Assembly: GCA_010015585.1 (NCBI GenBank)
Contig: ML975168.1
Strand: one strand, 5' to 3'
DNA length: 64,000 bases
Origin: Eremomyces bilateralis CBS 781.70
Lineage: Eukaryota
Part shown: positions 22,394 through 50,542 of the stretch, one piece after another
Layout of the letters: each line of letters opens with the position of its first letter
How positions within the stretch are numbered: position 1 is the first letter of the stretch
Translations under genes and position numbers: made by a program
The notes under the pieces: generated by a model
The model's input: the letters and a program-made list of their open reading frames with translations, nothing else
The model's database searches: none
Told to the model about the DNA's origin: nothing

Positions 22394-22902
22394 ATTTCCT
22401 GTGATTGCTGATAGGATGTTTGACCTAGATTTCCGCACCCTCGACACCCGATCAAGGCGCGGTGGTGTATATACTTGAATGCGATTTTACGAGCATTCCT
22501 GGGCCTAAAGTACGCAATAGGTAATAGTAATCGCAGAATTGCCTAAATAGGCAACTTGGCGGAAGATCCAGAATAACTAAACTAGCTTAGACGGTTGTTT
22601 GGCTAAATCATCGGCTTACCGATCTGTTGAGTCTAGCGCAATCTATCAGAGCTTCGGATCTACCTGTACTGTGTAGGCAGTTCGAGCCCTCTCTCCCCTT
22701 TCGATAGAGGAAAGCAGTTACGGCCTTGAAAGCATATGCTTCGGGATACGCGATGGCAGTTGGCATACCTACCTTATCAGCATGTAGCATAGGCGATCCA
22801 TTGGATTCGCACGAAGGTATCGTACAAAGGCAGAGGATGTACATTTCAAATTGAGCCGTCAGTTTCTTCCTTATCTTCTGAGAGCATGTTAGACGAGTGA
22901 CA

Positions 22903-25900
22903 ATGGAGCACCCACAATTGCAGAGTATCAAACGCGTTCTGATTGCCAATCGAGGTGAAATTGCCGTGCGATGTATTCGAGCGTGTAAAGCAGTGGACGC
23001 GACAAGTGTTGCGATATACACGAAGTCCGACGCAGCGTCTCTGCACGTGACCCAGGCTGACGAGTCTCTTTTGCTTCAGGGCGACGGGACAGCGGGATAT
23101 TTGGACGTGTAAGTAGGCGATATTCATTCGTCCTAGATATTTCTGAATATAATTTGGCTCATCTGTTCTGACCATGTCGTTAGCGATGATATCCTGCAGA
23201 TATGCAAAAAACACGCCATCCATGCCGTTATTCCAGGCTACGGGTTTCTCAGCGAGAATGTGGACTTCGCGAAGAGGGTAATAGATGCCGGGATGGTCTT
23301 CGTTGGCCCATCTTCGGACTCGATTCTAGAGATGGGCTTGAAACATAGAGCAAGAGAGATTGCAATTCAGGCGAAGGTGCCCGTGGTACCTGGCACCGAT
23401 CTGCTCGAATCCGAGGACGAAGTATTGGCTGCCGCGGAGCGCCTTGGATATCCAGTAAGGGCACCCTAGAGCGAGTAACGAGAATTTATATTGATGTGAT
23501 CTCACAGGTGATGCTCAAAGCCACCGGTGGAGGAGGCGGTATGGGTCTTCAAGTCTGCAAATCGACCGAGGACGTTAGCGCTGCTTTCGCCATGGTCCGC
23601 AGTAGAGGAGAGAAGCTGTTCAAGAACTCAGGGTTGTTTCTCGAAAAATACTATCTCAATAGTCGCCATATAGAGGTCCAGGTCTTTGGCAATGGCACCG
23701 AGACCGTTCACTTCGGCGAGAGGGAATGTAGCATTCAACGTCGGCACCAGAAGGTGGGAGCCGATCTTACATGCTTCAACACGAACTGATCTGACAATTC
23801 TTTTAATTAGGTCATCGAAGAGTGTCCAAGTCCGTTTGTTGCAGCTCATCCCGAACTTCGGCAACAGCTGACCGAATGCGCCACGCGGTATGCCATGCGA
23901 CTGAATTACAAATCCGCAGGCACAGTCGAGTTTCTAGTCGACGATGAGAGCGGTGGCTTCTTCTTCTTAGAAATGAACACCAGATTGCAGGTCGAACACG
24001 GAATTACAGAACTGTGTTACGACGTTGATCTAGTCGCTCTCATGTTGCGACAAGCTGATATGGAAAAACTCGGGGCTGGTGGCATCCCATCATCAGAACT
24101 CCGCAGTTTGCAAAAGCCTGGTCCTACCAGCGCGGCGATCGAGGCTCGTATTTATGCGGAAGATCCATACCGAGGGTTTGCCCCCAGCCCCGGTATCTTC
24201 CAAGAAGTTCACTGGCCGGAACAAGAAGGGGTACGAATAGACACGTGGGTTCAATCTGGCCAGGACGTGAGCCTACACTATGGTACGTACAATTTTATGC
24301 TACTCAGGGTATTTCGAGATCTGGCGCTGACAAGAGAATAATAGATCCCCTACTGGCAAAAGTCATGGTGCATGCGCCCACGAGGGAGCAGGCCATAGAG
24401 AAGATGGGCGATATTTGTTCAGAAGGCATCGCTCTGAAAGGCCCTACAACCAATCTGGACTTTTTAAGGAAAGTGATGGCCAGCGATGCCTTCGACAAGG
24501 GGGATACATTGACAAATTTCCTAGACACCCGCTTCGCTTATGAGCCGTGCGGGATCGACATTATTAGTCCTGGCGCCTATTCGACCATCCAAGATTTCCC
24601 GGCACGAGCATCAATTGGCCATGGTGTTCCCAAGAGCGGTCCAATGGACAACATAACTGCTCGTATTGCTAATCTCCTGGTGCACAACGCACCAGGGACA
24701 GAGGTTATTGAGATGACCTTATTTGGGGCGGAGCTCCTATTCACATCCGCAGCAGTGGTATCAGTGTGCGGTGCAAGCGCTCTAGTGACTGTTGACGGAA
24801 GTGAGCGACCTATGTGGTCTACTCTCGTGGTCAAGGCTGGTCAAACTCTGAAAATCGGTACAGTTAGTGGTGTTGGCTGTCGAATGTACCTCGCTGTTCG
24901 AGGAGGTTTCCCTAATATCCCCCTATTTTGTGGATCCAGGTCAACAACTCCAAGCCTGAAATTTGGTGGTACCCAGGGACGAACGATCCGTAAAGGTGAT
25001 TTCCTGCAACTCACGGATTTGACTTCGACGTGGGCGGCCGAGACTCATGAATACACTCTCCCGTCCGCCATGATACCACCGATGGAGGTCAAGGAAGTGT
25101 ATGTTCTACAAGGTCCCCACGATTCCGACGACATAATGACCATGGCGGACAAGGACATGTTGTACAACACAGAATGGAAAGTGGGCCACAATTCGAATAG
25201 AACCGGTGTCCGCATTATTGGCCCAGCACCGGAATGGGCTCGAAAAGACGGAGGCGAGGCTGGTTCCCACCCTTCCAACTATCTCGAGTAAGTTGTCACC
25301 CCGCGATCAGATCCATTGATGTTGGTTTCCCGAACGCTAAAGCTTTAAAGTTATGGCTACCCTTCTCCTGGAGGTGTGAACTGGGGCGGTGACTCCGGCT
25401 GTATATTCTCAGTGGACAGCCCGAATTTCGGAGGACTCATCTGCTCGACCACGGTGATCTCCGCCGAGATGTGGAAGTTGGGCCAATTGAAACCTGATAC
25501 CTCCTTTCGCATGATACCCGTGTCTCTCGAAGATGCCGTCCAGCAAATTCGCCGTGTCGATCTATGCCTTTCGGCTATTGCGGATGAAATCGATGGAAAG
25601 CTTGCGGCTGCAGTACAGCCGGTCTGGAGTCTTGGTCGCAGTGATATCATACCGTACGGTGCTGTTTTGCAGACCGTCCAAGCATCCTCGGAAAATCCAC
25701 TCCGACCTAAAGTGGTGTATCGACAGGTACGTATCAACACATTGGAGACGAAAATGCTTGTTTTGCTGACTCCCCTAGGCTGGGGATAGATTCCTTCTGA
25801 TCGAATTTGGCGAGCAGAGGACGGATATTGCCGTGGTCGCTTTAATTCGGCTGCTAATGGAGAAGTTGGAGTCGCTGGCCGATCTAACGCTGCTCCTCAC

Positions 25901-26984
25901 CCCACATGTGGGATCAGTGACAATCGAATACGATCCATTCCAGATATCCCAGAGCAAGCTCCTGTCGCGCATTCATGAAATCGAATCCAACATCCTGGCG
26001 ACGATCGATATAACCATTCCTTGCCGTGAGATCCGATTGCCACTTGTGATGGACCATCCGGATGTTCAGGAGTGTATCCAGAGATACATGGACACGGTCA
26101 GGAACAAAGCAGCATATCTTCCCGACAACATTGAGTATCTCCGCAAGTGCAATGGCTTGCAGTCACGAAGGGAAGTTTTCGAGAAAATGCTCCATACGGA
26201 ATACGTAGTGGTGGCTGTTGGGTTCCTCTGCGGTGCTCCAATGCTCTTTCCACTGAATCCGACATTCCTACAGTGTCAAAAATACAACCCCACAAGGGTG
26301 TCGACTCCGGGTGGAACCTTAGGGCTTGGTGGCTCCATCGTGGCTGCTTACCCCATTGAGCAGCCAGGAGGGTACATGATTGTCGCAAGGTCCTTAGAGC
26401 TGTGGGACCCATTCGGGACCAAGCCAGGATTTACCTCGGAGAGGCCATGGATGTTTGAACCTTTCGACAAAATCAAATTCTACGAAGTGAGCGTCGAAGA
26501 GTACGATTTGCTAGCACTAGATTTCTCTGCTGGGAGATATCAGTGGCAGGTTTCAGAGTCGTCTTTCAATGTGCGCGAGGCATATGACACGTTCCAAAAG
26601 GCGAAGTCCGATGCTAGTGTTCTCGAGTACAAGAGGCGCCAACAAGAAGGACTGAAGGAGCAAGAGCAAATTGAAAGAGGCCTTTACTCCACGTGGAAGG
26701 CCGAGATAGAATCGGAAGAGAAGGCGGAATTGGGAGGTGAGAGTACGGTGGACCTAAACGACACCAACTCCGTTTCATCACCAATGGCGGCCAATGTGTG
26801 GAAGGTAGAAGTGAAGCCCGGAGACGAACTCAAAGAAGGCCAACTCATCTCGATCCTGGAAGCCATGAAGATGGAGGTCAATATCTATGCTCAAAAGAGT
26901 TTAGCTGGCTTGAAGGTCGATGCGATTCTGAAAAAGCCTGGAAGTATCGTCGGTGCTGGTGATGTGATTCTGAGCGCTAAATAA
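22903..26984 (+). CDS. LamA-like / urea carboxylase-family biotin enzyme (biotin carboxylase + two carboxyltransferase domains + biotin carrier), about 7 exons
   Basis: LIANRGEIAVR, PGYGFLSEN, GGGGMG, RECSIQRRHQK, EMNTRLQVEH, NRTGVR, KYNPTR and the biotinyl motif EAMKME. There is no amidase (allophanate hydrolase) domain. Confidence 0.92.
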
Positions 26985-32212: not shown

Positions 32213-33503
32213 GTAGACATGTGTCTGGGCACACCCCCGAAAATCACCAAATTTGATCGCCATACACCGTATCTTGAGATACACTGAAAAACACGTACAA
32301 ATGCAAATTCAGTCTACTTTTTTGATTTCTTAATTGGGAAATATCTAATATTTCGTACGCCACCCTTTTGCCTTGGTTAATGCCTGTAGACGTCGCGGAA
32401 TTGAGTCAATCAGCTCTCGGATCGTCTCCTGAGGGATCGCCCACCACGCCTCCTTTAACGCCGCATTCATGGCCTCCCGTGCCTCCTCCGAGGCGCCCAT
32501 CATCTTCAATTCAGGGTGGAGCTCTATGACCTTGGTTTCAACAGATGCCACATGTGTTCGATGGGGTTGATGTCTGGGGAATTGACCGGCCAATCTATGA
32601 CCCAGATGCCGTGCGTCTCCAGCCATTCTTGGGTGATTTTGGCCGTATGGATCCTTGCGTTATCCTGGATAACAATATCCCCGGGCTCGTACGTATGGAG
32701 GAGTCCCTCCTCCAATGCAGCGATGTAGGATTTCGCGGAATACCCCTGTCTTGCGGAGGTTTCGTCGCGGTCCATGATCACCAGATCTGATCGCCTATCA
32801 CGCGAAATTAAGCCCCAAATAATCTGCGAAATCGCCTTCCCTGACGTCTTTGGCTCTACCATTCACGGTTTATACGCTTCGTGGTACAGGCGCCATACCC
32901 ATACCTGCTTACCGCCCGCCCCGTTCTCATACGAGCACTCGTCCGTAGAGTGGGTCCGGGAGAAGTCGAATTTAAGGAATTCGTGGGCAAACCGGAGGCG
33001 GTCTTTTGCGTGATGGGGCTTCAGGTGAGGCCTCTTTTTCGCTCGCCATTTCGTAAGGTGATATTTCTTAAGGGTTCGGTAGATGGTCTTCCTAGAAACG
33101 CGGAGGTACGAAATACCTGCGAGGAGCTCTCCGTACTCCATTTTAGGAAATCGACGCACGATTTGAACAATATGCCGTTCGTCAGAGCGTGATAGCTTAT
33201 GGGGACCCTCTTCACGGGATAAGGATACGGTGGTTTGGTGTTTTTTCCACCTCTCTATAGTCCCATACACAGCGTGTCGAGAGACGCGAAAGTTGCGCGC
33301 GATTTCAGTCTTCGGTTTCCCATCTTCAATAGCCTGAATAATCCCAACTTTTTGATAGACTGATAACTCCTTATTAGGCCCTCGATTACCACTAATTTCT
33401 GTGCCAAAAGGCCTCATTTTGGTAAAGTTATTGATTGTCAAAGTAAGTGGTGGTGTAGAGATATTCAGCTGAGAATGGGGTCTGTGCCCAGACTCTTGGC
33501 TTA
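32210..33503 (-). mobile_element. Tc1/mariner (DD34E) transposon with pseudogenised transposase (33417-32345); element ends approximate
   Basis: HTH N-terminus, STDECS and QDNARIH...WPVNSPDINPIE with 34 residues between D and E. In-frame TGA at 32863-32865 and a frameshift near 32536. Inverted core GTCTGGGCACA at 32223-32233 and 33483-33493. Confidence 0.88.
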
Positions 33504-34834
33504 TGCCTTATGGTAGTACTCCGTACTTTAACTAGATAATAGCACTGCACTCCTTTAATATCTTGCGAACCGTTGGCACCGGCGCTCTTTTTGGATGGAA
33601 GAGATTGGGGGCGAGTTTCTCGCTCCCTTCATCGGCGGTGATAGGTTCTAGTACCATATTGCAAAGCAATCTATTTCATACAACCTTGTCGACCATGCAT
33701 TCCAGCACTTCTATGCGCGTCCTTTTGATTATACACGCGCTCTGAATTCCCACCAACCTATCGATTATTATTGATCGATCGCGATCTCATTAGCCTTCTC
33801 GCTTCTGTGTCGTTTACGGAGTTCGCCTTCCGCGAGCGAGCGAACTCGTTCCCGAAGCCTGGTCGAAGTCAAAATCATTGGGAATCAATCTCTCCCACCA
33901 GTCAGCAAGCAGGAATAAACTCGTATAGTTTGAATTTTGTTGATTCTGTTCGATGTCTAATGACTTACTATAAATGAAGATCTCTTGGCAGAGTGCTCAC
34001 GATCACTGTTGGGTACTTGGAGACCTGGATATCTCGCATAATGTTTTTCACGATGCACCATCCCCAGGAGACGGCCCTAAGTTACAGGAAACAAATCACC
34101 AATTCTTCCAACATCCAAAGGGCTACATTTCATGGAAAACAGAAACATTAGATATGTCTAAACAGTCTATATGTCAGGGGAGGATCTAGTCCCATGTCCG
34201 TCTGTTGTAAACGGGCTCACGGGTAACATCAAACCTGCTGACCCGACTTTGGCTGCCGGTAAGCCTCCTATCGGATAGCGGTTTCTATATGCTCTAAACC
34301 CGTCCGGCAGCATACTTACAGCAGAATATGATACAGTCGTCTTGGCCTTGTCTGCCAAGTGTGCGGAGCCAGAATTGGCCAAGATAGCAGACGAATGTTC
34401 TTATCATGAAGTGGGAGACCATCCAAGATTAAGCTCCTTGAGAATATCAAACGGGTATGTAAACGTTGCTGTCCGCGACTTGGCCCTCCCAGTGGCTAAT
34501 GAAAACGCTATCAAAGTTATTCTCTGAGTTATATTGCTTCTACTAGCAAACCATCCACACTTCGATTGATCCAGGCTCAGTTCATCTTGCGATTGCTCGA
34601 TTATTCCACTGTCATAGTCTTAGCCCTTGCCTCCCCGTAATTATCAGCATCTTGTCTAATCTATTCATGAAGCACTATATTACCCCTTTTCCTAACCCCT
34701 AGGGGAATGAGGAAAGTGTATAAAAAGACATGGCTGGCCTAGACTCGATTGCTCCTCTTTTTAGCACGCAGCTAGTCGGTTCTGACCAACTTCATTCTCT
34801 TATTGCCGCGTCTCAATATTATTTCATCAACAAC

Positions 34835-35798
34835 ATGCGTATCTTATCTACTATTTCTCTGGCTGTCCTCGCTGCGGCGGCACCTGTCGAACTGGTGGAG
34901 CGTCAGTTTGGTGGTGGTGGTGGCGGATCAACCTCGAATGAGTTAACTCAGGGCAGCTGCAAGGAGGTTGTCTTCATCTTCGCGCGTGGTTCAGGGGAGC
35001 CTGGAAATATCGTGAGTTCATGGCATATTCCTGTTCAACCGGGAACGATAAACTAAATCGATTTGAAAGGGTATGATCATCGGGCCCCCCTTGATTAGCG
35101 CCCTCAAGGCGCTAGTCCCAAATACGGCCGTCCAGGGCGTCCCATATTCGGCAGGTATTGCAGGCAACCTACAACGCGGCGGTACGGATCAAGCGTCTAT
35201 CAACACAGCCACCCAGATCTTTAACCAGGCGAACACGAAGTGTCCTGATTCTATTATCATCGCCGGAGGGTATTCGCAAGGCGCTGCCCTTATGCACCGC
35301 ACGATCGAGAAGCTACCCGACAATGTTAAGAATAAGATCGCTGCCGTCGTCACCTTCGGTGATACCCAGAACGAAGAAGATAAGGGTACGATCCCTAACT
35401 TCCCTCCTGAGAAGGTCAAGATCTTCTGTAACGAAAACGACGGAGTCTGCGGCGCCAGCCTTTCGGTTAATGCGGGCCATATGTCGTACTCCACCTCGAT
35501 GAAACCCGCAGCCCAATTCCTTGCTGATGGCGTTAATAAGGCCAAGCAAGGTGGTGGTGCTAGCAGCGGCAGCTCCTCTGGCAGCTCCTCTGACGGCTCC
35601 TCCGGTAGCCCAACTGGTGGCCCTAGTGGCCTTGGTGGCCTCGGCGGGATCTCTGGCGGCGGCGGACTTGGCGGGCTCTCTGGCAGCGGCGGACTCAGTG
35701 GGCTGTCTGGTGGTCTGGGAGGCCTCAGAGGCGGTGGACTCGGCGGTCTGATGAGCGGCGGCCGTGGTGGACTTGGCGGTCTGAGGGGCGGTTCTTAA
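34835..35798 (+). CDS. Cutinase (CE5) with Gly/Ser-rich C-terminal tail; intron 35012-35069
   Basis: Signal peptide, [16 protein letters not shown] nucleophile, FGD and CNENDGVC...H. Confidence 0.93.
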
Positions 35799-35812
35799 AC
35801 GGATGTTGCGGA

Positions 35813-35862
35813 ACGGAAGAGCGGATGGGATTCTCTATGTTCAGCTTGATGTGGCCGTGTGT
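35813..35862 (-). pseudogene. 5S rRNA pseudogene, 5' ~50 nt only
   Basis: acggaagagcggatgggattctctatgttcagcttgatgtggccgtgtgt aligns without gaps to 45605-45654 of the intact 5S. Confidence 0.85.
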
Positions 35863-35972
35863 ATCAGAGAGCGAAGCTTTCCACGATATCAAATTCGATC
35901 ATGGATCCATTCCGCTCTGCTTCTATCCAGCTACCGTGCCTCTACGAACAATGTGCAAAAAACAAAAAAAAA

Positions 35973-35994
35973 ACATACAGCAATGGGAGTTCCC
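35973..35994 (-). pseudogene. 3'-terminal 22 nt of a 5S rRNA gene with its oligo-T terminator
   Basis: acatacagcaatgggagttccc is identical to 45536-45557 and is preceded on + by an A-run (Pol III terminator on the minus strand). Confidence 0.85.
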
Positions 35995-36912
35995 CATAAC
36001 TCTCCCGCCGGTATAAAAGAGGTCGAAATCAGAGTGTCAATACCACCGAGAGACGCGGAGCCGTCGATAATACACTCTCTGCACCCAGGGTAAAGCTTGT
36101 AAAGATGCCGTTTCTCCTTAGTTTTCCAGTCTCGCTCTCAGTCACCGTTTTGTTCGTAGTCTACAGTACTCTCCTTCAGTTCTAGTCTCATCAAATTCGG
36201 CGGTATTCGACGCTATCAATACTCCAAGCAGCGAAAGTTCTCTACATCCATTCTAAAGAAACGTCTCGACAGTGGCACCACGACACTTTATTATGAATGG
36301 CGAAGCCCGAGAACAGGAGGCAGAAGAACTTCTAGCTGATTTCCAGAGCAAGCCCCTCGATGATACGGTCCCAGTATCGGACAGAACTTCGTACAAGCGC
36401 GGCTACGCTATGAGGCTCGTCAACCCAAGTGGAGAACTGATTTCGGGACCCGTCTGGGAGGTTTCTAATGTGAGGTCTGTCTTCTACTTGTGCATAGAAG
36501 GATAGTAACATCCAGGTAGTGGATTGTCCACGAGCTTCCTTCGCTTACCAGAATCTCAAACGAACCTAGGCGCAAAAAGCGGACTGCGAGTCTGCGACTG
36601 CTCTACCGCCATACAAGATTGTCATTACCCATGACCTCCATCGACACCACAGCTAATCTTTCGTGATTCTTAAACCCTTTTTGCGAACTATTAGCGCCAA
36701 AACCTCTTCCATACCGCGATGTTGTAACATCTCACGGCACGTATCACGTATACCCGCTGCAATCTATCGAATCACGGTTTGCTCCCGCTTCAACTAGAAG
36801 CTTTGCTTCAACAAGCCCACTAGAGAGTACTTTCTGGAACCTTTGCGATTCGCGACAGAGTACTCTGTAGGGATGAGTGCAGATGGTATGGGATGATATG
36901 CCTGCTCTTGTC

Positions 36913-36933
36913 CAACAACAACAACAACAACAA
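36913..36933 (+). repeat. (CAA)7 microsatellite
   Basis: Read directly from the sequence. Confidence 0.9.
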
Positions 36934-37149
36934 CAGCGACGATACATGATAGCCTACTTAAAGCGAGCGCCTCGGATAGCTCCAACTTTCGCGTGTGATT
37001 GCAAAGTTAAGCTTTAAGTCCGCTGGGAATGCTACGTACCAGAGGGCCTGTCCGCCGCCAGCCCGATCACCCGAGCAAATCTGAATTTGTAGTTTCAATC
37101 GGCCTGTCCGTGCTATGGTATTAATACAAGAATATTAGAATACTAATAC

Positions 37150-38774
37150 TCATGCTGGTTTCCACTCATAGTGATGTGCCCCTTTCTCAGTCTTCCCAGG
37201 GTCTTCGCCATTAGCATGCGGCCTATCATACGAATGAGCGCCAAAGTAATCCATCTCCGCTTCCATGAACTGGGTGGGCAACATCGTACCACCTGCATAC
37301 TTGACATATTCCAAGCTGGCACTCAAACTCGGCACATAATTGTCCCATTCCATCGCCTTCAGCACGACATTCTTCAGCGGCTGGAAGTTTTCGTGAAGAA
37401 CAGAAGACACTTCATCAATGAGCTTTATGTTCATGATGGGTTGTTCCTGGGCATTGTCGGAATGAAAAACTGGTTCCAGCATGTCGGCAATGTGCCCCGC
37501 TTGGATAATACATCCAGCGCGCCAGATGCGGATGCAAGTGCCGAGATCAATGTCCCAGCTCTCGTCCTTGCTAGCGCGTGCGATGAGTTCGAGTCCCTGA
37601 CAAAAGCTGCAGAGAAACGAAGCGTAGACCGCACGCCGCAAGTCCTCGAGGAATGCTTTCTTAATGTTCTGCGTTGCCTCCTGTGGGACTGGAATGTTGT
37701 CTAGAATCTTGAGATTCTCTGCCACGCGTAGTCGTTGATCTCGATTACCGCTGGCTACACGGAGAAAATGACCCGTTGCTATTGTCGGGGCAGCAACGTG
37801 CCGAAGAGCTGCTTCTGAGACTGTCCAATACCCCGTGCCTTCAGAGTTGTCGTCGTCTTGTACGACCTTATCCAGCACATCGTCGAGAACGAAGCCAGCA
37901 GTACCTGCACCTTCGCCCTTCTTGTCACCGCTAGGAGTTTTCCTTGTCCGGCAAATCTCGCTACCTATCTGTACCAAGTACGTGTCTCGCAGCTCGCCAG
38001 TAGAGTCCCATTTCTTGAAAACTTCACCAATCTCATCGTACGGCATCCTCAAAGACTTGTGCATAATTGACCAAGCTTCACTGATCGTGGAGAGCATGCC
38101 ATTTTCGATGCCGTTGTGGACCATTTTAACCTGGATGAAAATTAGCTAACGATGCAATGGGATGCGAAGGTGCTTACAAAATGCCCGGCGCCCCTTGGTC
38201 CAATATATGCAACACAAGGCTTTTCGCTCTTGGGATCCTTTGCCGCAAACTTCTCTAGCAGTGGCAGCACTTTCTCAATTGCCTCCTTGTTGCCGCCTGG
38301 CGACATGCTCGGGCCTCTTCGAGCACTTTGATATCCGCCACTAACACCCATGCCTACCCAATGCACATTTTCGCTTGCTAGTGCCTTCTGGCGTCGTTCT
38401 GTGTTGCGATAGTGCTCATTCCCGCCATCCAAGATGATGTCGCCTTCTGTAAGGTAGTCCCAAATCTTTTCCATGACGCTATCGGCCGGCTTTCCATGCG
38501 TGATGCTGAAGATGTACACGGCGGGCTTGTCGCCTTTCATTGAATTTGCAAAGTCATGTATGTCACGGAACCCTTCGATCTTGCCCTTCAAGAGCTTCTC
38601 CTTTTCCTGCGCCTCTTTTGCCATGTTTATTGCTTGGGAGACATTCTCATTAGAAATGTCCCACAGCGAAACATCTAGACCTTGCTCAGCAAATCCAAGC
38701 GACATCATTGTGCCCATGTTACCAGCACCGACGATGCCGATACGTTTGTAGGTTTGATTTTGATTAAATGCCAT
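37150..38774 (-). CDS. gnd: 6-phosphogluconate dehydrogenase (decarboxylating), 1 intron
   Basis: IGIVGAGNMG, ILDGGNE, GMGVSGG, GPSMSPGG, GAGHF|VKMVHNGIE, IWRAGCII and DYFGAHSY. Confidence 0.93.
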
Positions 38775-38928
38775 GATTATGGAGGTTGTAGCAGTATGAT
38801 TTTTTAGCTAACATGTGGCGAGTGAAAACTATCGTAATAGCAATAGTTTACTAGAGGTTGAGTCTTAGAAAATAAATCTTATGAAAGTAGCGGGGAATTT
38901 TGACACTATCTTTGACCCAAATATCAGT

Positions 38929-38936
38929 TTACGTCA
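38929..38936. promoter_or_regulatory. CRE/ATF-like site TTACGTCA in the gnd-mpi divergent promoter
   Basis: Matches the bZIP T(G/T)ACGT(C/A)A consensus; function is not shown. Confidence 0.45.
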
Positions 38937-39135
38937 GTATTTACTAGGAAGCGTTCGTTGTTGCGTTGCGGCAATGACGACAGTATTACGCCGCCGTGGA
39001 TACGTTTAAGGAGCTAAAATCGCATCCTAGATTTAGCACAGGAACGTCTTCAGTCTATTTCGACAAAAACCGCGTCCATTTTCTCCCACTGACTGAAAAC
39101 TCAACCATCCATTTGCTCCCAATGTACATACCGAC

Positions 39136-40453
39136 ATGGTGGAATCAATAATCCAGCTTAAATGCTCTTGCAATGTCCGTTGATACCCAATTGACCTCCT
39201 GAATATGCTGCTAATGTCTCTAGACCTATTCATGGGGCAAGAAGGGGCACGAATCTCTTGCTGCAAGGCTCTGTGCCAAGGTTCCCGGGACTGACTTCAA
39301 GATCGACGACAGTAAGGAATATGCTGAAGTATAAATTGCCCGCCTCTCCCGCCAGACCAAGAAGCTCACGGGCATGCAGATGTGGATGGGGACATACCCA
39401 ACGACTCCGTCTTATGTGCTCTCTTCCGGCGAGAATCTACAAGACTTGCTCAATGCCAACAAAGAGAAGCTCATCGGTAAAACAGTCTTGGAAAAGTATG
39501 GCGCTGATTTGCCATTCCTATCTAAGATTCTGTCCGTCGCAAAGGCGTTGCCGCTCCAGCTTCACCCAAACAAAGAACTTGCGTCGCAGTTGAACAAGCA
39601 GAACCCAGAAAAGTTCAGCGATCCAAACCATAAGCCCGAGATTGCTGTTGCTCTATCAGATTTTGAGCTTTTTGTCGGTTTCAAGCCGCTCAAGGTCATC
39701 AGTGACCTCTTTCGGCTCGATATCCTCAAGCGCTTTCTTCCAGATGGCTTCAAGAGAGATAGGTTCAGTGATGCCAATCTGCGACTCATTTGTAGCTCCT
39801 TACTCAAAGCACCGGAGAGTGTTGTTGAAGAGGTGGTTCGGGATCTCCAGTCACTTTCAAAAGAGCAGCTAGGACAACAAGCGTACATGCTAGATTTGCT
39901 GCCAAGGTTACGGGAGCAATACACCAGCGCCGACAACGGGATCTTGCTGGCGCTGCTGTGCATGAACTTCATGAAGCTCAAGGCAGGAGAAGCGGTGTAT
40001 GTCCCGCAGGATAGCGTTCACGCATACCTATCTGGTGACATTGTGGAGTGCATGGCGCGCAGTGACAATGTACTCAACACTGGCTTCTGTCCTGCAGCTG
40101 ATCGGGATTCGGTCGATGTCTTTACAGACACTCTTTCGTTTTCGCCACACGAGGCTGACGCAGCGATTCTGGCTACCAAAGAGAGCGAAAAGGGCAGTGG
40201 AAAGACGATTGTCTACGCTGCAGAGTTTAGCGTTCTGTGTACTTCACTGAAAGCGGGAGAAGCCGAGAAAGTAAAGGAGATTGAAGGGCCCAGCATCTTA
40301 TGGGTAACGAGCGGTGCCGGATCATTGATTGCAAACTCGGAAGAAAAAGATCTACAAGAAGGAGGTATCTTTTTCATTGCTCAGGGGGTGCCGGTAGAGT
40401 TTACGGCGAATGACAAGGAGGCATTGGTGGCGTATCGTGCCTATGCGGAATAG
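39136..40453 (+). CDS. Mannose-6-phosphate isomerase (type I PMI), 3 exons
   Basis: YSWGKKG, YAE|MWMGTYP, LPFLSKILSV, LQLHP, DPNHKPE and HAYLSGDIVECMARSDNV. Confidence 0.92.
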
Positions 40454-40713
40454 ACTGAGACCGGAACGCGTATCGGACAACCAACGTGCTACTGATGCGC
40501 TGAGTGAAGAATAGCGGAATACAATGTCTCTAGAGCAGTTTCGCTAGGTTGTCGAATGCTAGTTGAAATCGCAAATATCAATGACATCATGCATATTCTT
40601 ACCTCCAACCCTAGTACAAAACAGCTGATACGCCACTGCCCGTTCATTCAGTGCATTTTAGAGAGTATTCTACGTACTAACCTCAGTTCTTTCTCAGATC
40701 AACTCATTGAGCA

Positions 40714-41864
40714 ATGGCCCAAACGCAAACCCAATCGCTACCACCTCTATCCATCGCAACCTCCTCCTTGAATCCATTCCCTGCGGCCACAGAAGCTCCG
40801 CACGATCTCAGCTCAAAACTCCACGCCATCACCCACGCAGGATTCCGTGCAATTGAATTAGCCTTTGCAGACTTTCTATCTTATGTTGAGCAGCACTTTG
40901 GTCGCAAGGTCGACCCTCAGGCCTGGGACGATCTAAGCACTGCGGCAAGGGCACTGCGGCAAGAATGTAAGACGTTGCAGTTGGAGATCATGATGCTTCA
41001 ACCATTCAGTAACTTTGAAGGCTGGGATCCAGAGTCGGAAGAAGGGAGAAGCAAGCGGGAAAATGCGTTTGCGAGAGCAAAGGGATGGATTCGACTTATG
41101 CAGGATCTAGGAACTGATATGTTGCAGGTATGACTTTTGCAGGCGATATATGGCTTGATAATATCTTGAGTCTAACGAGCTTTGGGATGTAGGTCGGTTC
41201 CACAGATGCTCCAAACATCAAGAAGGACAAGGCATTTCTGGCGGCAGATCTCGCCCGACTAGCAGACATGCTAGCAGAGCACAATATGCGCCTAGCCTAC
41301 GAGAACTGGTGCTGGGCCACATTCGCGACAAACTGGCGTGACGTCTACGACCTCGTCGTTGCCGTAGACCGGCCAAACATAGGGCTCTGTTTGGACACAT
41401 TCCAGTCATCCGGTGGTGAGTGGGGCGATCCAACAACAGCATCCGGCCACCGAGAAGATGTGCCGAAGCACGAGCTGGAAGATCGATTTCAGGACAGCAT
41501 GCAGCAGCTGGGGGCGACGTTACCCAAGGAGAAGATCTACTTGCTGCAGGTGTCGGATGCTTACAAGCCGCCGCAGCCGCTAGATGCGAGTCTGGACGGA
41601 AGTGGATTGAGGCCGAGGGGAAGATGGAGCGGTGCGTTTAGACCGATGCCCGGGAAGCAGGGCGGGTATTTGCCTGTTTTGGAAGTAGCGAAGGCGGTGA
41701 AGCGCACTGGGTTCCGAGGTTGGTTCAGTATTGAGATATTTGATGGTGGCCCGGCGGGCAAAGACAGGGAGCTGGGAAATCTGGACGATCAGGCTAAGGA
41801 GATTATGGAATTAAGCCAGGCATTTTTGACGAAGGCGATGGAAGAATGCGACTATGTAGTCTAA
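40714..41864 (+). CDS. Xylose-isomerase-like TIM-barrel protein (sugar-phosphate isomerase / dehydroshikimate dehydratase-like), 1 intron
   Basis: AGFRAIEL, LQPFSNFEGW, LAYENWCW, VDRPNIGLCLDTF, LQVSDA and GWFSIEIFD. Confidence 0.85.
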
Positions 41865-42050
41865 GCCCTGGAATGTTGCAATGGCAATTATACAGCAGAG
41901 ACTCCATAGTACAAACTTCTCTTGCAATCTCATTTAACACTTTGTGGACTCTCGTTTGATTTCCTCTATGTCCAGCGTACATTCATGCCAAGGGTACTCT
42001 TCTAATATTTCTATAGTGCACATCTGAGTCAAGGAACATGGAGCTGTCCA

Positions 42051-43171
42051 CTATCCGTTCACGACAACTCCACCATTCGGGTGCAAGCTCTGGCCAGAGA
42101 TAAAACTGCTGTCTTGGCTAGCCAGGAACACAAAACAGGTCGCAACCTCACTCGGCTGACCAGCACGGCCCATTGGGGTCTGATGGAACCCTTTTTGAGT
42201 TTCTTTGGTCATGGTAGCAGGAATAAGCGGAGTCCAGACTATTGGATGTGTATCAGCAGCTTGATCGAAAATGGTTGAAGCTGTGCGCATACCTGGACCT
42301 GGGCAGACACAATTGACACGAATACCTTCGCCGGCTACCTGATTCGACAGAGCCCGCGTGAATGAGACGATGGCTCCCTGGGAAATCTGTTAGCTTCAAC
42401 TGTGAGGCTGAGGTGATTGCGAACTTCAGTACCTTTGTGGATGTGTAATCGAGCAGATCAGGGCGCCCGACATAAGCGTTGATGGAGGCATTGTTGATGA
42501 TGGTATCGCCAGACTTTAGATGAGGCAAGACGTATTTAGAGAGGTAGAATACTGGGTTGATGTTTGTTGCAAAAGTATCTTCCCAAGTATGTCTGCGATA
42601 AATCAGTCACTTATCACATTCTACATGAAATGATGGACTTACTCGGTCAGATCCTTGATCTTCTCAACTTGAATCTGGGTACCAGCATTGTTGACCAGAA
42701 TATTCACACCACCAAGCTTGTCCAACGCAGTATCAATGATCTTCTTACAGTTTTCTTTCTCCTTAATGTCAGTCGCGAGCAAATAGCACTTGCGGCCATG
42801 CTCTTCCACCCGCTTCTTTGTCTCCTGGGCGTCTTCCTCTTCGTCGGGAAGTTCGACAATCAACGAGTCGGCTCCCTCCATGGCAAAGAGGATGGCAATA
42901 GCACGGCCGATGCCAGAGTCCCCACCGGTGATGATTGCCTTTTTGCCCTCTAGCTTTCCAGCGGCTTTGTACTTCTGATAGTCACCATCCTCTGTCGGTA
43001 GCTGGGTAGATACAGGCTTCGGATCCTGCATGTCTTTCTGTTTTCCAGGTCTCTCCTGATTATGGGGAGGGATTTGATGACCTATGGCAAGTTAAAGGGT
43101 GGTCTACAGATACTAACCTATACTGGTCCTTGTAAGTTGCACTTACCTTTTTCAAACTGACTTTCAGCCAT
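42051..43171 (-). CDS. Short-chain dehydrogenase/reductase (general-stress glucose-1-dehydrogenase-like, YdaD/YhxC type), about 5 exons
   Basis: YKAAGKLEGKKAIITGGDSGIGRA, LVNNAG, LLDYTSTK and PMGRAGQPSEVA...SFISGQ..HPNGG. Confidence 0.92.
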
Positions 43172-43375
43172 TTGCAGTATTTCAGTCGAGGTTCGATATG
43201 AGTTTAAATAAGAATGCGGCGTTAATTGACTAAATTGAGAGATGAGAGATGGAATTCAATTGAGCGAGGAGGGTGTTTGCAATATGCTCTATATGGCCTG
43301 CAGCTAATACTTCGGTTTTATAGGCGCCTTAATGCCGTCGATGTTCTTGGGTGTCCCACGGCCGTCACATCACCC

Positions 43376-43383
43376 TGACGTCA
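43376..43383. promoter_or_regulatory. Perfect CRE palindrome TGACGTCA, ~205 bp upstream of the SDR
   Basis: Direct consensus match; function is not shown. Confidence 0.45.
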
Positions 43384-44608
43384 GCGATGACCGAGCATTA
43401 TTTTCCGCTTCAAAGAGAATTGCAAACGTGAGCCACGTAAATGGCAGCAATTAAATGAGTGGATGTTACCACTTCTAGGACCGAGTAAACTTTCCGTTAA
43501 TCCAACCAAACCCACTTCCAGATGCCTATATTGTACAACATTTCAAGTTCATGCTGAGCGTGGGAGGTATAGAGAAAGGTAGACTTCTGGATGCGACGAA
43601 GACGAAATGTTGCGAACCCAGCCAATGGGCACGTCGTTTGAAGCTTTCTTCAACTGCATACACAGCGCAGGAACCCCACAGGTACCAAATGTTGCGCGTT
43701 CTCGTCCTAGAACTAAGACAGGTCATCATGTCTGTGTTGGATATCAACCATCTTCTCTGTTACCTCAGCAAGCTCAGGCTATTTGCAGGACTTCTTCTTC
43801 GACTGTAGCAGAAGATGGCGCATCTGCTCCATCTTCATTGTTACCGCCTCCAACATCGAAGGCAAGGACTCGCGATCAGGGGGGCGCGGTAGTTTGTGTA
43901 GCAGAATGGTCGATAGCTGGGATCTATAGCTCCGAATTCCAAATTTTTGAGATAGAATTGGTCTATATTGCGCGTAGAATCATTCCATGAAGCTGATGAT
44001 GTTGACCTGAATGCTCACCAATTTGCATGCCACGAACGTCAACGCCACCAAAAAATTTCAAATTTGGCTCAGGCCCTTCGTGTGGGTGACCCATTTTGGG
44101 TTAGCGCCTTTGCGTCCCACTGAAGGGCCTGAGAGCCTGAGGTAAGAATTAAGTCTCCAGCCTGGTCACGTTACTTGGACTAGTCCTCGAGCAAATAGCC
44201 TGAGGATCCTATCAATGACGCTTGCTGACTGTTCGATGATTTGAATGTGTTTTTCACGATTTTGGAAAATCTCACTTTTGCATATTCTTCAATAACAACA
44301 CGAGGACTTATTGTATTTGCCCTCAAATTCACTGGGCTGTGCAGCAAGGTATACTTTATCTGGAAATTGAAGCTTTTTCCACTCCCGATGCTTGTGTCTT
44401 GTGAAAAACCCTGATATGTTAGAAACCAGACCGCGTCAGAATCGTCAACCAACCACTGTTCCCACGCTTAAGGCTAAAGGGGCATGGAGAGTGCCTAGAG
44501 AAATACTACCCAAGGTCAGTGAAACGTCTACAAATACCATATAAAGCTTTCCTATGTCGGGATTGACGCGTCCGTAGTATCATTGGGCACGCGATGTAGT
44601 CACATCTC

Positions 44609-45235
44609 CTATGCCGTCCGAATCGCCTCCGCTATGAAGTAGCTGTCAACCTTGGAGGCAGTCTCGTCGTATATGGCGGCGCCGGGAGAGTAGAAAAGGT
44701 CCTCTAATGAAAGTGGAACCTCGCGGTGCAGCATCGACTTCCTCAATCCACCTGGGGGAATGTCGGCGCCTCTGAAAACTTTCCCCGTTGTCACAGAGCG
44801 CATTTCTGCATGGTTTGAAATGAGCTAGTACTTGACACATTCCCGGCTTCCCGATAGTCGAAATTGTCGTAGTCAACACAGGCGTCCAGAAGCTGGCCAT
44901 ATCGACGGACCGTCCCCTACGCACGGTTAGTCGATGTCCATTCCGAGAGAGGGTGAGGATGCCTTTGCTTGTTCTGCCACAGTTTGGAGATGCCTATAGA
45001 CTCCCTTATAGCCTTCACAAACCCCAAACTGGTGAAGAAGATCGAGGACACGTCGTTTGACGCCATTGTAATGTAGAAAGGCACCAAATACGCAGGGAAA
45101 CTTGTTGCTTCCTTCCGAGGCTCGAGAATAACAGAGAATCGATGTGATTATTGCAATCCTGTGGTTGAATTTGGAAGGATCTTGTGGCGGTCGATCTTTC
45201 CTCTCTATCTTGGGATTGCCAGGGGCGCAAAACAT
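44609..45235 (-). pseudogene. Fragmented transposon-associated ORF (DUF6589-family-like N-terminal region)
   Basis: SILCYSR..SN.F...FGAFLH.NGVKRRVLDLLHQFGVCEGY resembles, from memory, the conserved segment of fungal DUF6589 proteins. The reading frame is broken. Confidence 0.45.
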
Positions 45236-45349
45236 AAACTAACAATCTAATCCCCCTTCAACTAACTAACGACATATCCTTCACTGACTAAGAATGTATG
45301 GTAACATGCCCGGCCAATGGCAGGCAAGCAGGATAGTACTACAGCGAGA

Positions 45350-45469
45350 GAGTTCCCACGTGGTCACCCACCGTAATTATAAATTAGTACTAGTTATCCC
45401 ATCTCTAACCTGCTTGAGTACGGCAGAGCGGACGGGATGCCCTATATTCAGGTTGATATGGCCGTATGC
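45350..45469 (-). pseudogene. 5S rRNA pseudogene with degenerate or missing 3' end and small internal insertions
   Basis: Nearly identical to the intact copy from GAGTTCCC to the 5' end, with extra AT-rich bases (aattataaatt) near the internal control region. Confidence 0.9.
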
Positions 45470-45535
45470 AGTAGTAATTGAAACTTTTCACTATCAACCT
45501 AGCAATCTGCAAAATTCAACAAAACAAAAACAAAA

Positions 45536-45654
45536 ACATACAGCAATGGGAGTTCCCACGTGGTCACCCACCGTAGTACTATTCCATCTCTAACCTGCTT
45601 GAGTACGGCAGAGCGGACGGGATGCCCTATATTCAGGTTGATGTGGCCGTATGT
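45536..45654 (-). rRNA. 5S ribosomal RNA, 119 nt
   Basis: ACATACGGCC...CCCGTCCGCTCTGCCGTACTCAAGC...GGTGGGTGACCAC...GCTGTATGT. Terminal helix and AACCTG/CAGGTT helix pair; oligo-T terminator and upstream TATA-like element are present. Confidence 0.95.
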
Positions 45655-48033
45655 ATCATTAAATAAAACTTTAAACTATAAATATAGTTATTCTACTTGG
45701 GAATTGAGTCACCCATGGTTAGCACATGCGACGTTCCCCGAACTCTTCATCACAGGAGATCGACATTTAAATTCAAGCACTGCTGGGGCCATTTGAACAT
45801 AATTAAAGATCGGACTACATGGTATGAAACGATTGTGCGATGGTGTTCCTTTGATCCTATCTCCCAGATGACGACTTCGTCACTACCACCTACCCGTATC
45901 ATCAATCCCGGGCCACAGCCACGGCGTTGGAAATGAGAACGTGTTTCTCTCATTTGCGTCTTTCTGTTTGGTTAGTTGTTTACTGGTTTAAGAGAGATTC
46001 GCCGTCTCTTCCTCAAACTAAACCGTTGCAGGACCGAATCCATCTGACCCCCACCACGCATTTCTCCAATTCCAACTTCTAAGACATTCCAATTCCGGTC
46101 TGTTAAGGCGTCCTCCAACCCGAACACGTTGCTGTCGTTTCTCCACGGTCCGACCGCGGTGGTCCGGACCCCTCTCTGTTGCTGGCTTTCCACCGCATGC
46201 GACTATGTATAGGGACCGCTTGGGAAAAAGGAAGATTTTTCACAAAATTGCAAGCCAGAAAGCAGCAGATGTCAAATTTCTTTGAGGGTTGGGGGATGTC
46301 GTACAGGAGCAACGGGCAGAGGTTTCGCCGCAGGACCAGGGACGTGACCGAGCGCGAGGTTCAGGACAGGAGTCAGGACACTGAGCCTTGTGTGTTCTGG
46401 CTTTGGGTGACAATGGCATCGAGGAAGAGGAACGGATGGTATAAGCAGAGCCGGTGGTCGAGATAGAGGTAAGGAACGGGAACTGGAGAGACCAAACGAG
46501 GTACGGTAACTTCTGGTATGATATGCTGTCGAAGTGTCGACGCACTCCAGGAATGTCGCATACAATGATCGCAGCACGATACAATGGGACATTCTGAAAC
46601 CACGACAATTACCTGTACCAATACATCCACAACACCAAAACATGATCCTCATGTAGTTATATAACCGATATTTAATAATGTCCGAATCGCGAATATAAAT
46701 TGGATAATTCGAACTTCAACGAATAAGCGCCGGGTAGAGTTGTGCACAGAAACGGAAATTGTACGTTTCACCCGCTCCTTCCCTACAGCCAACCAGCCGC
46801 CTCGAAACAAGTGACTTGACTCCCTGACTTCGTTCCCTTCAAGTCTCAACTCCTTGTGCCAACGCCCAATCTCTCCAAATCCTCCATCCGGCTGTTGGCA
46901 TCCTTTCTTCCATTGTTTCTCGCTCGTTTTCTTCACTCGTTTCAAGTCTATACATCCCTTCCTTTCTCTTCCCAATTGAAGTCGAGCAAAGGCGAGTTAT
47001 CATTCACTCTGACTCCCCTACCGTACGGACTGATCGGATGTCCGGAGCAGGGAATTATTCCGCCGCCTTCATTTGCACCACCACTGACCTCAGTTAAGAG
47101 GCACCATCTTCAAGCATCGGACTAGACGCCACGCATTCATTATAGAGCATCCTCTCTTTTAGCCCTGCCTCAATTCTTCCCTCGCTCTTTCATCCGGACA
47201 TTCTTGACACCAACTTCAAGAAATCCCTTTGTGCGATCAGTGGGTGTGGGTGTGTGGGTGTGGATCTGGCTGTCTCCTTGCTCCGAGATCTTTGTTGTGT
47301 GCTCACTCCTTTGCACACATTGACTCAACCCTCATCTCCGTCCGGGCTTTGGGCTCACAGGGTCTCGCTGGCTTCAACACATCGTCGCCTCTTTGGATTC
47401 CAGATCTGGCCGTTTCGTTGTCTTCAAAACGGCGCCCATCCACGGTCGTTTCCTTACCTGGAATCATCCCACTGATTCAGTCGTTGTTGCGCCCTAGTCG
47501 CACCCTCTGCCTGTAAGATCTGTCGATTTGATAAAGGCTTGCTAAACCCTCCGTGAGGAACCTCTTATCCTTCAGGTGAGTGTCCCCTTATCCCTTTGCT
47601 CGATTCACGGGGTGTGTTTGCAGCGTGAATGGTTTCGAGCACATACCCTCAAACAAACTCATTTCTGGAGCATGATAACCTCCACCTCTCTCCAATTTGG
47701 GTACAGGTCATGTTTGTTTTGCTTTCTTTAACATTCTGCGCAGTAGCATCATCACATCTATCATCAGCACCGGTTCCCTGACCGCTCACTTCTCTTTACA
47801 TCCAAACATCACAACCCAACTTTTTCCATTCCTTAACCCTCCCAATCACTCTAGCAACTTCACACCCTCATTTCAAAACTGCTATATAGCTTTACATTAG
47901 ATACCCTCCTCATGCTAACTATCCTTAAGCCATCCTCATTCCGTGATCTGCGATTCACGGCCGGACGAACACTCCTTAGCTCTTGTATCCTTCCTAGATT
48001 CAACGAATCCGGTTCCGGTAACCTCCTGTAACC

Positions 48034-48995
48034 ATGCGTGTTGCCATCATTCTTCTTGCTGGCCTGATGGGCATGGCTGCTGCCAGCCCCGCCATGGAGC
48101 GCGCCGTCGTCACTCAGTGGGATGTGGTGGTCGTTACTACGACTGTCGTTGCTGGCCAGGAATCCACTCCCGAGCCCATTCCCGAATCCACTCAGAAGGG
48201 GAAGGAGGATGAAGAGCCTTGGATTTGGCCTGGAAAAGGTCGCGAGGGCGGAAGGATTCAACCAGAACCTGTTCCTGAGCCGAAACCGGAGGAACCCGTG
48301 GACACACCTGCTGCCGCGCCAGAAGTCCCTAGATATCAGCGCCATGTGATTGATCATCACAACGTCCATCGCCGCAATCATTCCGTTGCCGACATCCACT
48401 GGGACCAGGGCCTCGCCGACACCGCACTGAAGACCGCTAAGACCTGCGTTTATGCCCACGACGTGTAAGTTTACTTTCAGTAGCCATAAGTAAACAAACC
48501 AACCAACCAATACTAATGTCTCCTAGTGAGATGGATGGCGGTGGCTACGGTCAGAACATCGCCGCTGGCGCCGAGGAGACCAACATCACCGCCATCCTCA
48601 CGGAAATCTTCTATAACCACGAGATGATGAACTTCGAGAAGTGGTATGGCTGGGAGACACCCGGCGATATCAACGACCACGACGCGTTCATCGGCTGGGG
48701 CCACTTTACACAGATCGTCTGGGCCGATACCACGCACGTCGGCTGCGCCACGTACGATTGTCGATTCTCTGGCAAGGGGATCGCTGGTCTAGAGAACGTC
48801 AGCAAGGAGTGCTCGCCGTACTTCACCGTGTGCAACTACAAGACGTCTGGTAAGTCTTCTCTTTGATTTCCCCGTCCTCAAAGGCATACGCCTGTTGGCT
48901 GACACCACAAAACAGGCAACTTCCCCGGCCAGTTCAACAAGATGGTCAACCGCCCCCAGGGCCATCCTGTCGTGCACTGGGACTACAACTACTGA
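48034..48995 (+). CDS. Secreted CAP/SCP/PR-1 domain protein; introns 48465-48526 and 48850-48915
   Basis: Signal peptide, HHNVHRRNH, YGQNIA, GHFTQIVW and TVCNY...GN. Confidence 0.93.
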
Positions 48996-50542
48996 TTCTT
49001 CCCCATCCGGGCAGGATAATCATACGTAGCCCCATACACCTTTCCCCCCACCCCTGCAGCACGAGCCGCCATGTATAGCATGTGTCGTTAGTGTTCGTTT
49101 CGCGTTGCATGGCCTACCCCTCATAGCGCTGCAGTGTACAGTTCTCCCATCCACTCACGCATGCTGTTCGATGTTTCCCTCGCATATTCACTTCGCGCCT
49201 AGCTCTGCTTTTTTGACTTACTCCCGCTGCGTGTTTCCTGTACCGAATCCTTGTTCCTTTCGTACTACCATCCACCATCTAACCATGCCGCCGTTTTCTG
49301 TTTTGACTACCCTCACACACTGTACCCTCCCTCGTTCTCTCTACATCCCCTTACATTACCCTGCACATGGCCATTAGACCTCCATGCGTGCGCCATCATC
49401 GAAAGACTTGCACCACCACCAATCTCGATATAGGCCTGCTTTATCTTCTTGTTTCTCGTGTTGTTGCTATAGTTGCAGATGAGCACCATACCAGACTGTG
49501 GATATTCGAGAATCGAAGCAAGAACTCTGCCGAAATAACCTCTTACCCTGACGTGATTTGAGTGATGTTTGCGTCCTGAATCGATCTCTCCCGGTCGTAG
49601 TCCCTAAGGGAAACCCAGTTGGGCTTGCGCGATTATCTATCAGCCTTCTAAGATCTCGAATATCGGAGGTGTAGCCTAGAAAGCTAGACTATGAATCCAC
49701 ATGGAAGAAACCCAGTCACGTGGCCCTTGCTCTTTAGGTTGTTTGCAGTATCGCTCCGTGACACATCTAGCCGCGGCGCCATCCACCTCTCGAGAAGCTT
49801 GTAGGCATACGAGTCCGAAACCTAACACCAATCCATCACCAAAATTACACTTGCGAAGCCGCTGGGTATGATATCTGTCTGACCATAAAATCGAGCGAAA
49901 TTGAAATGGTTCGACAATTCTATCTAGCGGAGAGAACAGAATAATGAAGGCAGGTAAGGCAAGTTATCAGTCAAGGTGTGGAGTTGGGTTAGAGTTTCGG
50001 CTAGTTCCGATCGGCGTTCAGGAATAAGCAAGATGATGGAAGTAGCTAGGAGGAATAGATCTCACCATGAAAAGGGGTTACTACTATTCACTCAAGGTAA
50101 TTTCAATAGGTCAAATGAATTGAATTTTTGTCAAGCTTATAAGAGATATTGATAGGCTGACTTTTGTAACTTACTTGCCTTTAACTACATGTATCGATTG
50201 AAGGGCGTGACAGTGGTGAACTTGCCATACCGGGACAGGACAGGAGGACTACGGCATCTCTCATCTAACAGGGCTGCACTAGTCATGTCTAGACGTAAAC
50301 TCTCGTCAATAGACTATTCTGTGAGCAAACTGGTAAAATAACTCGAGATTGCCTATATGCGTGAATTACATGTCTATATTTCGTTACTACTGAGCGACGA
50401 GCATTATAAACTCGGTCCACTCATGATAATGTCCTCTCCATGCAATCGTCCCAATACGCCGATCAAAGCCACTTAAAAACGCCGAAAAGAAGTAAACATG
50501 CCATACTTCCGGGCAGATCAAATCCATACGGTACCAGTACCA

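Follow-up and report, generated by a model that had tools for sequence, protein, structure and literature searches.

A 5S rRNA gene split by a probable degraded Starship with four metabolic cargo genes in Eremomyces bilateralis CBS 781.70

Introduction

Starships are fungal elements led by a DUF3435 tyrosine recombinase, the captain, and the 5S ribosomal RNA (rRNA) gene is one of their recurrent targets. In the portions of the starfish survey drawn on here (Gluck-Thaler and Vogan 2024, PMC11162782), 5S ribosomal DNA (rDNA) accounts for 23% of the curated Starship insertion sites, at least five distinct target sites are counted in the gene, and the direct repeats of the 5S-targeting families measure 6-16 bp. 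For Arwing (family 9) the same portions place the majority of insertion sites in 5S rDNA, with a core motif CCCG/GGGC in either orientation, and for Eremomyces bilateralis, represented by a single genome, they give 15 captains and 0 bounded elements (PMC11162782). Sizes of Starships in the published excerpts run from 27-393 kb in one account and 47.5-151.6 kb in another. The subject here is a stretch of 64,000 nucleotides from contig ML975168.1 of E. bilateralis CBS 781.70 (assembly GCA_010015585.1), called the window below, in which a 5S gene is split by 9,355 bp of DNA holding four metabolic genes. We read this DNA as a 5S-targeting Starship, degraded and non-autonomous, that belongs to the Arwing family or stands close to it, and put the probability of that reading at roughly 0.8.

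The split 5S gene and its junctions

Every 5S sequence at the locus is carried by the minus strand. Copy A (45654-45535, minus strand) is an intact gene, matched by Rfam over its full length at 85.1 bits and provided with a T-run terminator, and it shows the uninterrupted target sequence. Beside it copy B (45469-45350, minus strand; Rfam, blastn) is the 5' part, positions 1-105, of a split gene, with no terminator after it. The displaced 3' piece of that gene, C (35994-35959, minus strand), lies at the other end of the inserted DNA and consists of positions 98-120 (35972-35994) and a T-run terminator; blastn with the intact gene and its terminator gives 36/37 identical letters, 14 nt of terminator included. 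Set against its neighbour A, copy B is near-perfect up to position 105, save for 2 mismatches and some 15 nt of insertions around a TAGTACTA palindrome, and past that position it is near random against 5S, having stood at ~98-100% identity before the breakpoint. Piece C is perfect from position 98 to the terminator and upstream of position 98 falls to chance level (2107/5000). Both halves thus make the switch at GGGAACTC, 5S positions 98-105, which reads GAGTTCCC on the plus strand. These observations, complementary halves in one orientation and a sharp loss of 5S similarity at the same place in both, speak for an insertion.

The motif GAGTTCCC stands at both junctions, at 35987-35994 on the left and, by sequence inspection, at 45350-45357 on the right, and because the adjacent bases differ on both sides of the two copies the direct repeat is exactly 8 bp long, within the 6-16 bp range of the 5S-targeting families. 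Between the copies lie the 9,355 bp of inserted DNA (35995-45349). When 35995-45357 is excised in silico, the resulting gene is 134 nt long; aligned with the 120-nt neighbour it shows 117 identical positions, 2 mismatches and 16 gap positions, the gaps being due to the ~15-nt internal insertion in the upstream part. A preliminary description of the window had proposed that two 5S halves of the same orientation overlap exactly at both junctions and that deletion of the intervening DNA would rebuild a 5S-like gene near an intact one; blastn and Rfam place the halves at the coordinates given above, the overlap is exact at 8 bp, and the rebuilt gene agrees with its neighbour at 117/120 positions, with a gap of 65 bp between the two. 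The imperfect terminal inverted repeat of the same description is present, with AACTCTCCCGCCGGTA as left arm (35998-36013) and a right arm at 45340-45354 that overlaps the direct repeat; its core is complementary at 10/11 positions (to 45344-45354), and about 13/16 positions pair once one gap is allowed, but its standing against chance is marginal, a matter taken up with the other difficulties below. An attP-like arrangement, in which 5S mimicry would flank the core on both sides, was considered and set aside, the left arm being at chance (2107/5000) and the right arm marginal (234/5000).

A further 5S fragment, D (35866-35813, minus strand; blastn 47/54 identical), had escaped the preliminary description. 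It is an old 5' fragment of another copy, covering about positions 1-50 and weakly traceable to about 35790, and it sits downstream of the split gene beyond a spacer homologous to that between the two right-hand 5S copies. The spacers after A and after C are homologous (23/2000 shuffles reach the local alignment score), and in each case a 5S 5' part comes next, so by its sequence the locus looks like a former tandem array of three 5S units. Neither C nor D is reported by Rfam, even at E up to 10.

The extra ~15 nt of copy B lie at 45376-45399, around the TAGTACTA palindrome at 5S positions about 66-78. Another 5S copy in the same genome has a different 10-letter insertion at the same place (contig joint 45374 to 45574), and the old fragment at 35813-35866 also terminates near positions ~66-78. 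The region around the palindrome may, to judge from these sequences, be a second hot spot or footprint site.

The 5S pieces also invite a reading in which nothing was ever inserted, the pieces being independent decayed pseudogenes of a scattered fungal 5S family beside transposon debris and the genes between them plain residents. Rfam does extend the match of copy B to 45336-45469 (minus strand, 42 bits against a gathering score of 38), aligning 45336-45349 as the copy's own 3' end; fragment D shows that 5S sequences have decayed at this locus; and the inverted repeat is weak. The tail at 45336-45349, however, is only marginally 5S-like (234/5000 random 30-mers align equally well to the 5S 3' end), and therefore copy B is best read as truncated at position 105. 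Independent decay would also have to bring the breakpoints together within an 8-bp overlap, in the correct order and orientation, which by rough estimate chance would do in a few per cent of cases, and a fall from ~98-100% identity to near randomness at one point is unlike uniform decay. A captain stub in its canonical place, and right and left ends joined head to tail as one family at another locus (both described below), stand against it too, and we consider it quite improbable that the locus never received an insertion.

The left end and the captain relic

The captain relic is found just inside the left junction. The Starship 5' terminal region (35995-36715, plus strand) is present in some 6-7 genome copies by contig depth, and contains an ORF (open reading frame) of 70 amino acids (36293-36502, plus strand) that matches two DUF3435 (PF11917) proteins of E. 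bilateralis CBS 781.70, P0002 of 793 amino acids (E 9e-19, 85% identity over 57% of the query) and P0003 of 379 amino acids. With P0002 as query, tblastn traces the relic over 36272-36597 (plus strand) at 78-95% identity: residues 1-49 of P0002 are at 36272-36418 (38/49 identical), residues 150-168 at 36413-36469 (18/19 identical) and about residues 169-194 at 36520-36597, beyond an intron-like gap. The longer N-terminus of P0003 moves the start of the match to 36185. Residues 50-149 and the catalytic domain (P0002 residues 195-492) are missing, the start codon position reads GTG, a stop is present, and similarity fades by 36723.

This stub begins 278 bp inside the left direct repeat and reads inward, the canonical position of a captain; two repeat-to-captain distances in the automated Starship annotations of the starfish tables (table S7, PMC11162782) are 242 bp and 549 bp. 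In the starfish tables P0002 appears as erebil1_347678 under fam09, the family that bears the name Arwing (PMC11162782, Table 1). It was a word-based homology search that found the stub and not Pfam, which gives no DUF3435 match among the 141 window ORFs of at least 100 amino acids or among 106 further ORFs of at least 40 amino acids near the ends, because what survives of the captain falls outside the DUF3435 domain. The left end also has indices resembling those left by repeat-induced point mutation (RIP), with TpA/ApT at 1.11 and (CpA+TpG)/(ApC+GpT) at 0.88, and such indices are absent from cargo and flanks. The preliminary description had supposed a small 5S-targeting Starship whose captain had decayed, and had suggested a DUF3435 profile search. 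The profile search itself came back empty, but homology to DUF3435 proteins did supply the stub, and with its canonical site, its fam09 relative and a left end in several copies the supposition is largely supported.

Copy number and contig evidence

Three public sequencing runs bear on the locus. Two of them, X1 and X2, contain the DNA and stem from one sample, from which the assembly was probably made; the third is from a distant relative, for which cover is confined to 5S and short conserved parts of two flank genes, the lack of cover elsewhere being uninformative. Contigs of the runs were placed on 33550-50000 at a likeness of at least 80%, and what follows concerns the contigs listed, with 792 further pieces outside the list. 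A single-copy sequence has a depth of about 240 in X1 and of about 165 in X2. On that scale the interval 35746-36843, with a summed depth of about 1540-1610 in X1, amounts to 6-7 copies, and the interval 43432-45078, with depths from 1232 to 11033, to about 20-45 copies at its peak. Between the two the cargo block (36716-43789) is single-copy: one X2 contig of 7,075 nt covers 36715-43789 without a difference and at single-copy depth. Termini that are repeated in the genome, around cargo that is not, form a further support for the Starship reading.

The unique left-flank contig stops exactly at 35994. A paralogous contig spanning 35979-36293, with 27 differences and 5 gaps, joins 16 nt of the 5S 3' end to left-end sequence, and another, at single-copy depth in both runs, reads from 45308 to 45342, continues with nine other letters and GTTCCC, and then enters the left end (joint 45342 to 35989); the right terminus in this head-to-tail joint differs in 9 letters. 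Both contigs come from elsewhere in the genome and not from this locus, and taken as a pair they link both ends to a single repeated family. The head-to-tail contig is probably a tandem pair of elements, as tandem integration at the core would give.

A family with several copies brings up another history, in which two Starship copies of the same family, sitting in different 5S genes, recombined with one another or were used by an inversion or translocation, so that the insert and its two flanks would not go back to a single insertion, and the cargo block might be host DNA that a pair of element ends enclosed. Since every copy would break 5S at the same position, complementary halves alone are no proof of a single event; Starships have been placed at rearrangement breakpoints in another fungus, so far as the source excerpt goes; and the captain stub ends at about 36723, exactly at the border between genome repeat and single-copy DNA. 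The flanks speak otherwise. Homologous units of 5S, spacer and 5S stand on both sides of the insertion, as they should for one interrupted array, and the restored gene agrees with its neighbour at the 117/120 positions already given. Such a chimera is in our view improbable.

Metagenome scans gave 0 matches to the exact 21-nt left-junction pattern, and for relatives of P0002 gave 56 pattern matches with 0 confirmed. Among the contigs of the source sample there was likewise no joint that skips 35995-45349, an outcome that is uninformative with that sample alone.

The right end

The last part of the insertion is composite. From 43790 to 45214 (minus strand) it consists of a repeat at about 20-45 copies at 80% identity or more (contig depths 1232 to 11033 against 240), and within this lies a relic, interrupted by many stops, of the N-terminal portion of a DUF6589-family protein (45214-44612, minus strand; tblastn), corresponding to about residues 168-342 of proteins of ~900 amino acids, the DUF6589 domain itself being absent. 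The relic's relatives were found by exhaustive search with a read-through translation, P0001, of 43781-45340 on the minus strand (stops as X), which has 196 protein matches at E up to 0.001; PF20231 (DUF6589) is present in 12 of the 14 matches that were scanned. A 95-amino-acid ORF in this region (44183-44467, minus strand) has no match among the longer proteins. The right-end ORFs had been candidates for a captain relic, an idea ruled out by the DUF6589 domains of their relatives. Judged by its sequence, this 1.4-kb stretch is a piece of an unrelated repeat with a high copy number, and the DUF6589 protein is probably a transposon protein; there is almost no literature on DUF6589 (PF20231).

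Paralogous contigs of this repeat leave the window sequence at 45203 and 45214, and therefore the last 135 bp (45215-45349) are taken as the element's own Starship 3' terminal region, which includes the right inverted-repeat arm and a short 5S-like stretch. That stretch, at about 45304-45342, contains two exact, collinear 5S matches, 8 nt and 10 nt long and opposite in orientation to the target gene, and 57/2956 random 135-mers score equally. The second of the two matches grows to 15 nt in the head-to-tail contig.

Cargo genes

The single-copy block carries four genes of sugar metabolism, all with short fungal introns and all reading through with no lesion. Cargo 1 (37150-38774, minus strand) is a 6-phosphogluconate dehydrogenase (6PGD) paralogue with Pfam NAD_binding_2 and 6PGD domains and two exons around a 44-nt intron; it is intact, and is 100% identical to the 525-amino-acid P0154 (E. 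bilateralis CBS 781.70, NCBI) over residues 1-200 and 200-525. Cargo 2 (39136-40453, plus strand; PMI_typeI_cat) encodes a type I phosphomannose isomerase and is apparently intact; it has two short introns near its 5' end, and its exons were read by eye from a three-frame translation. Cargo 3 (40714-41864, plus strand) is a xylose-isomerase-like TIM-barrel protein of the sugar-phosphate isomerase/epimerase type, apparently intact with one intron, and AP_endonuc_2 matches both of its exons, at profile positions 3-86 and 99-236 of 249. Cargo 4 (42051-43031, minus strand), a short-chain dehydrogenase/reductase with adh_short and adh_short_C2 matches over three ORFs, is apparently intact with three introns. 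Pfam, the three-frame translation and the protein match uphold, so far as they allow a judgement, the earlier statement that four intact metabolic genes lie between the ends.

For a foreign origin of the cargo there is no signal: its GC content equals that of the flanks, and the nearest 6PGD relatives are from other Dothideomycetes, at 78-79%.

A possible history and its difficulties

A history that would account for these observations begins with a short tandem run of 5S genes. A tyrosine-recombinase captain would have integrated the element site-specifically into the middle one, at GGGAACTC (98-105), so that the 8-bp sequence came to stand at either end of the insert and the gene was divided between a 5' part at 45469-45350 and a 3' part with terminator at 35994-35959. 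One or more internal deletions would then have taken nearly all of the captain gene along with any further sequence behind it. Still present are a 5' terminus with a captain stub of ~95 codons, the four-gene block, the DUF6589 fragment and the 3' terminus. With its captain nearly all deleted the element is non-autonomous, and its movement would depend on a paralogous captain, encoded at another place in the genome, acting in trans on its ends; the cargo persists as ordinary resident genes.

Several points weigh against this account. Published Starships are far larger than the 9,355 bp of this element. No empty site backs the account, since the DNA is present only in the two runs of one sample; the inverted repeat is marginal against chance, 178/5000 random 40-mer pairs from the window scoring equally; and the 5S side of the paralogous junction, at 16 nt, is below the 31-letter rule used for bridging contigs. 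The family placement comes from about 95 N-terminal residues and the nearest match, with no tree. The cargo bears no foreign mark in GC content or in its 6PGD relatives, and DUF3723, FRE, PLP and NLR genes are not found among the Pfam matches of the window. Finally, among the listed contigs none bridges 35994/35995 and none runs from cargo through the repeat to 5S, and therefore the assembly across 43790-45688 stands without an independent check.

This last point opens the way to an assembly artefact, in which the repeat-rich 43790-45688 was misjoined and the right junction came from another copy of the element. Source-sample contigs do break at every repeat border, and no listed contig spans from cargo to the 5S genes. 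Yet the window's own repeat variants are seen as contigs with 0-2 differences (43791-44048 and 44362-44645), no loose end is reported at 45349/45350, and even a misjoin would leave the left junction and the captain relic as a Starship in a 5S gene. We hold a misassembly to be very improbable.

Within the Starship reading there is room for a bolder version, which we think rather unlikely, that the element is a natural mini-Starship, a deletion derivative functional at both ends and carrying a cassette of four metabolic genes, and that intact family-9 captains of the same genome could move it in trans. If that were so, it would relate to Starships as a miniature inverted-repeat transposable element (MITE) does to its parent transposon, the head-to-tail junction would record tandem integration through the recombinase core, and the recombination site would take in the 5S-like stretch of the 3' terminus.

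For the degraded Starship that we favour, the interest is of a plainer sort. The split 5S gene gives base-exact boundaries without the need of a second genome and reveals a target site within 5S that lies 15 nt short of the gene's 3' end. The locus shows how far a Starship can shrink with ends and cargo surviving, and makes a clean case of cargo turned resident after the death of the captain. It is also a candidate for asking whether captains mobilise small captain-less relatives. The known mechanism of Starships is unchanged by all this, and a specialist would find the locus tidy and instructive and would not be surprised by it.

Flanking genes

The window is that of a filamentous ascomycete, and encodes Zn2Cys6 regulators, Cse1, Sey1 and similar genes by Pfam on its ORFs. 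The element occupies the interval between a cutinase gene (34724-35795, plus strand), whose product has a long, glycine-rich, repetitive C-terminal tail and whose stop codon directly adjoins the old 5S fragment at its decayed end, and a CAP-domain gene on the other flank. Outside the element, ~2.5 kb to the left of the 5S fragments, a Tc1/mariner-type transposase relic (32348-33507, minus strand) has HTH_Tnp_Tc3_2 and DDE_3 in separate ORFs. Further off, at 18225-26981, Pfam domains mark a LamB/YcsF gene, a gene for a copper amine oxidase and a large fused one that unites biotin carboxylase, carboxyltransferase (CT_A_B and CT_C_D) and biotinyl domains; going by these domains, it is a urea-carboxylase or oxoprolinase-like nitrogen-catabolism neighbourhood.

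Comparison with known elements

Bacterial integrative elements that reside in tRNA genes use a tyrosine recombinase, target a conserved small-RNA gene, and have a short repeat of that gene at both ends. They usually restore the 3' end of the gene, in contrast to the 5S gene here, which is left broken, with an element-side tail that is only marginally 5S-like. The analogy between Starships and these bacterial elements is also drawn in the portions of PMC9156397 used here. A Crypton was considered as well and dismissed, as the relic's relatives carry DUF3435 and the four cargo genes contrast with the cargo-free Crypton.

Voyager of Macrophomina phaseolina, as far as it is described in the excerpts of Gluck-Thaler et al. 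2022 (PMC9156397), always hits and fragments a 5S gene and has several copies per genome, features that recur here. It differs in being large and autonomous, and in its insertion point 20 bp from the 5' start of 5S, the point here being 15 nt short of the 3' end. Derelict and other degraded Starships of the same source (PMC9156397) share with the present element a captain lost or decayed and a cargo that persists. In those excerpts they are recognised by FRE, DUF3723, PLP and NLR genes and lack defined ends; the element here is unlike them, having none of those accessory genes and keeping both ends and the target-site repeat. The engineered small Hephaestus miniH-phi is likewise small with a dead captain, in that case frameshifted, and in the parts of Urquhart et al. 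2023 (PMC10104507) drawn upon a captain supplied in trans restored its excision. It is a laboratory construct, and of another family with another target site.

The nearest likeness is to Arwing and the other 5S Starships (Gluck-Thaler and Vogan 2024, PMC11162782), again to the extent of the portions drawn on. The Arwing core motif CCCG/GGGC is not obviously the repeat of this element, and GAGTTCCC, GGGAACTC and related motifs have no match among the starfish repeats listed, the curated repeat table being outside that comparison. Two partial resemblances in those lists were set aside: GTTCCC stands in two terminal inverted repeat (TIR) rows that belong to an Aspergillus fumigatus fam06 element with a different direct repeat, and 'gagaatccc' is the repeat of a fam07 element for which the target is not given. 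The present element also departs from these Starships in that its captain is an N-terminal stub and its length 9.4 kb. For the rest the features are shared, with an inward DUF3435 captain at one end, a nearest captain of fam09, a short direct repeat that is a motif inside the 5S gene, and ordinary metabolic genes as cargo.

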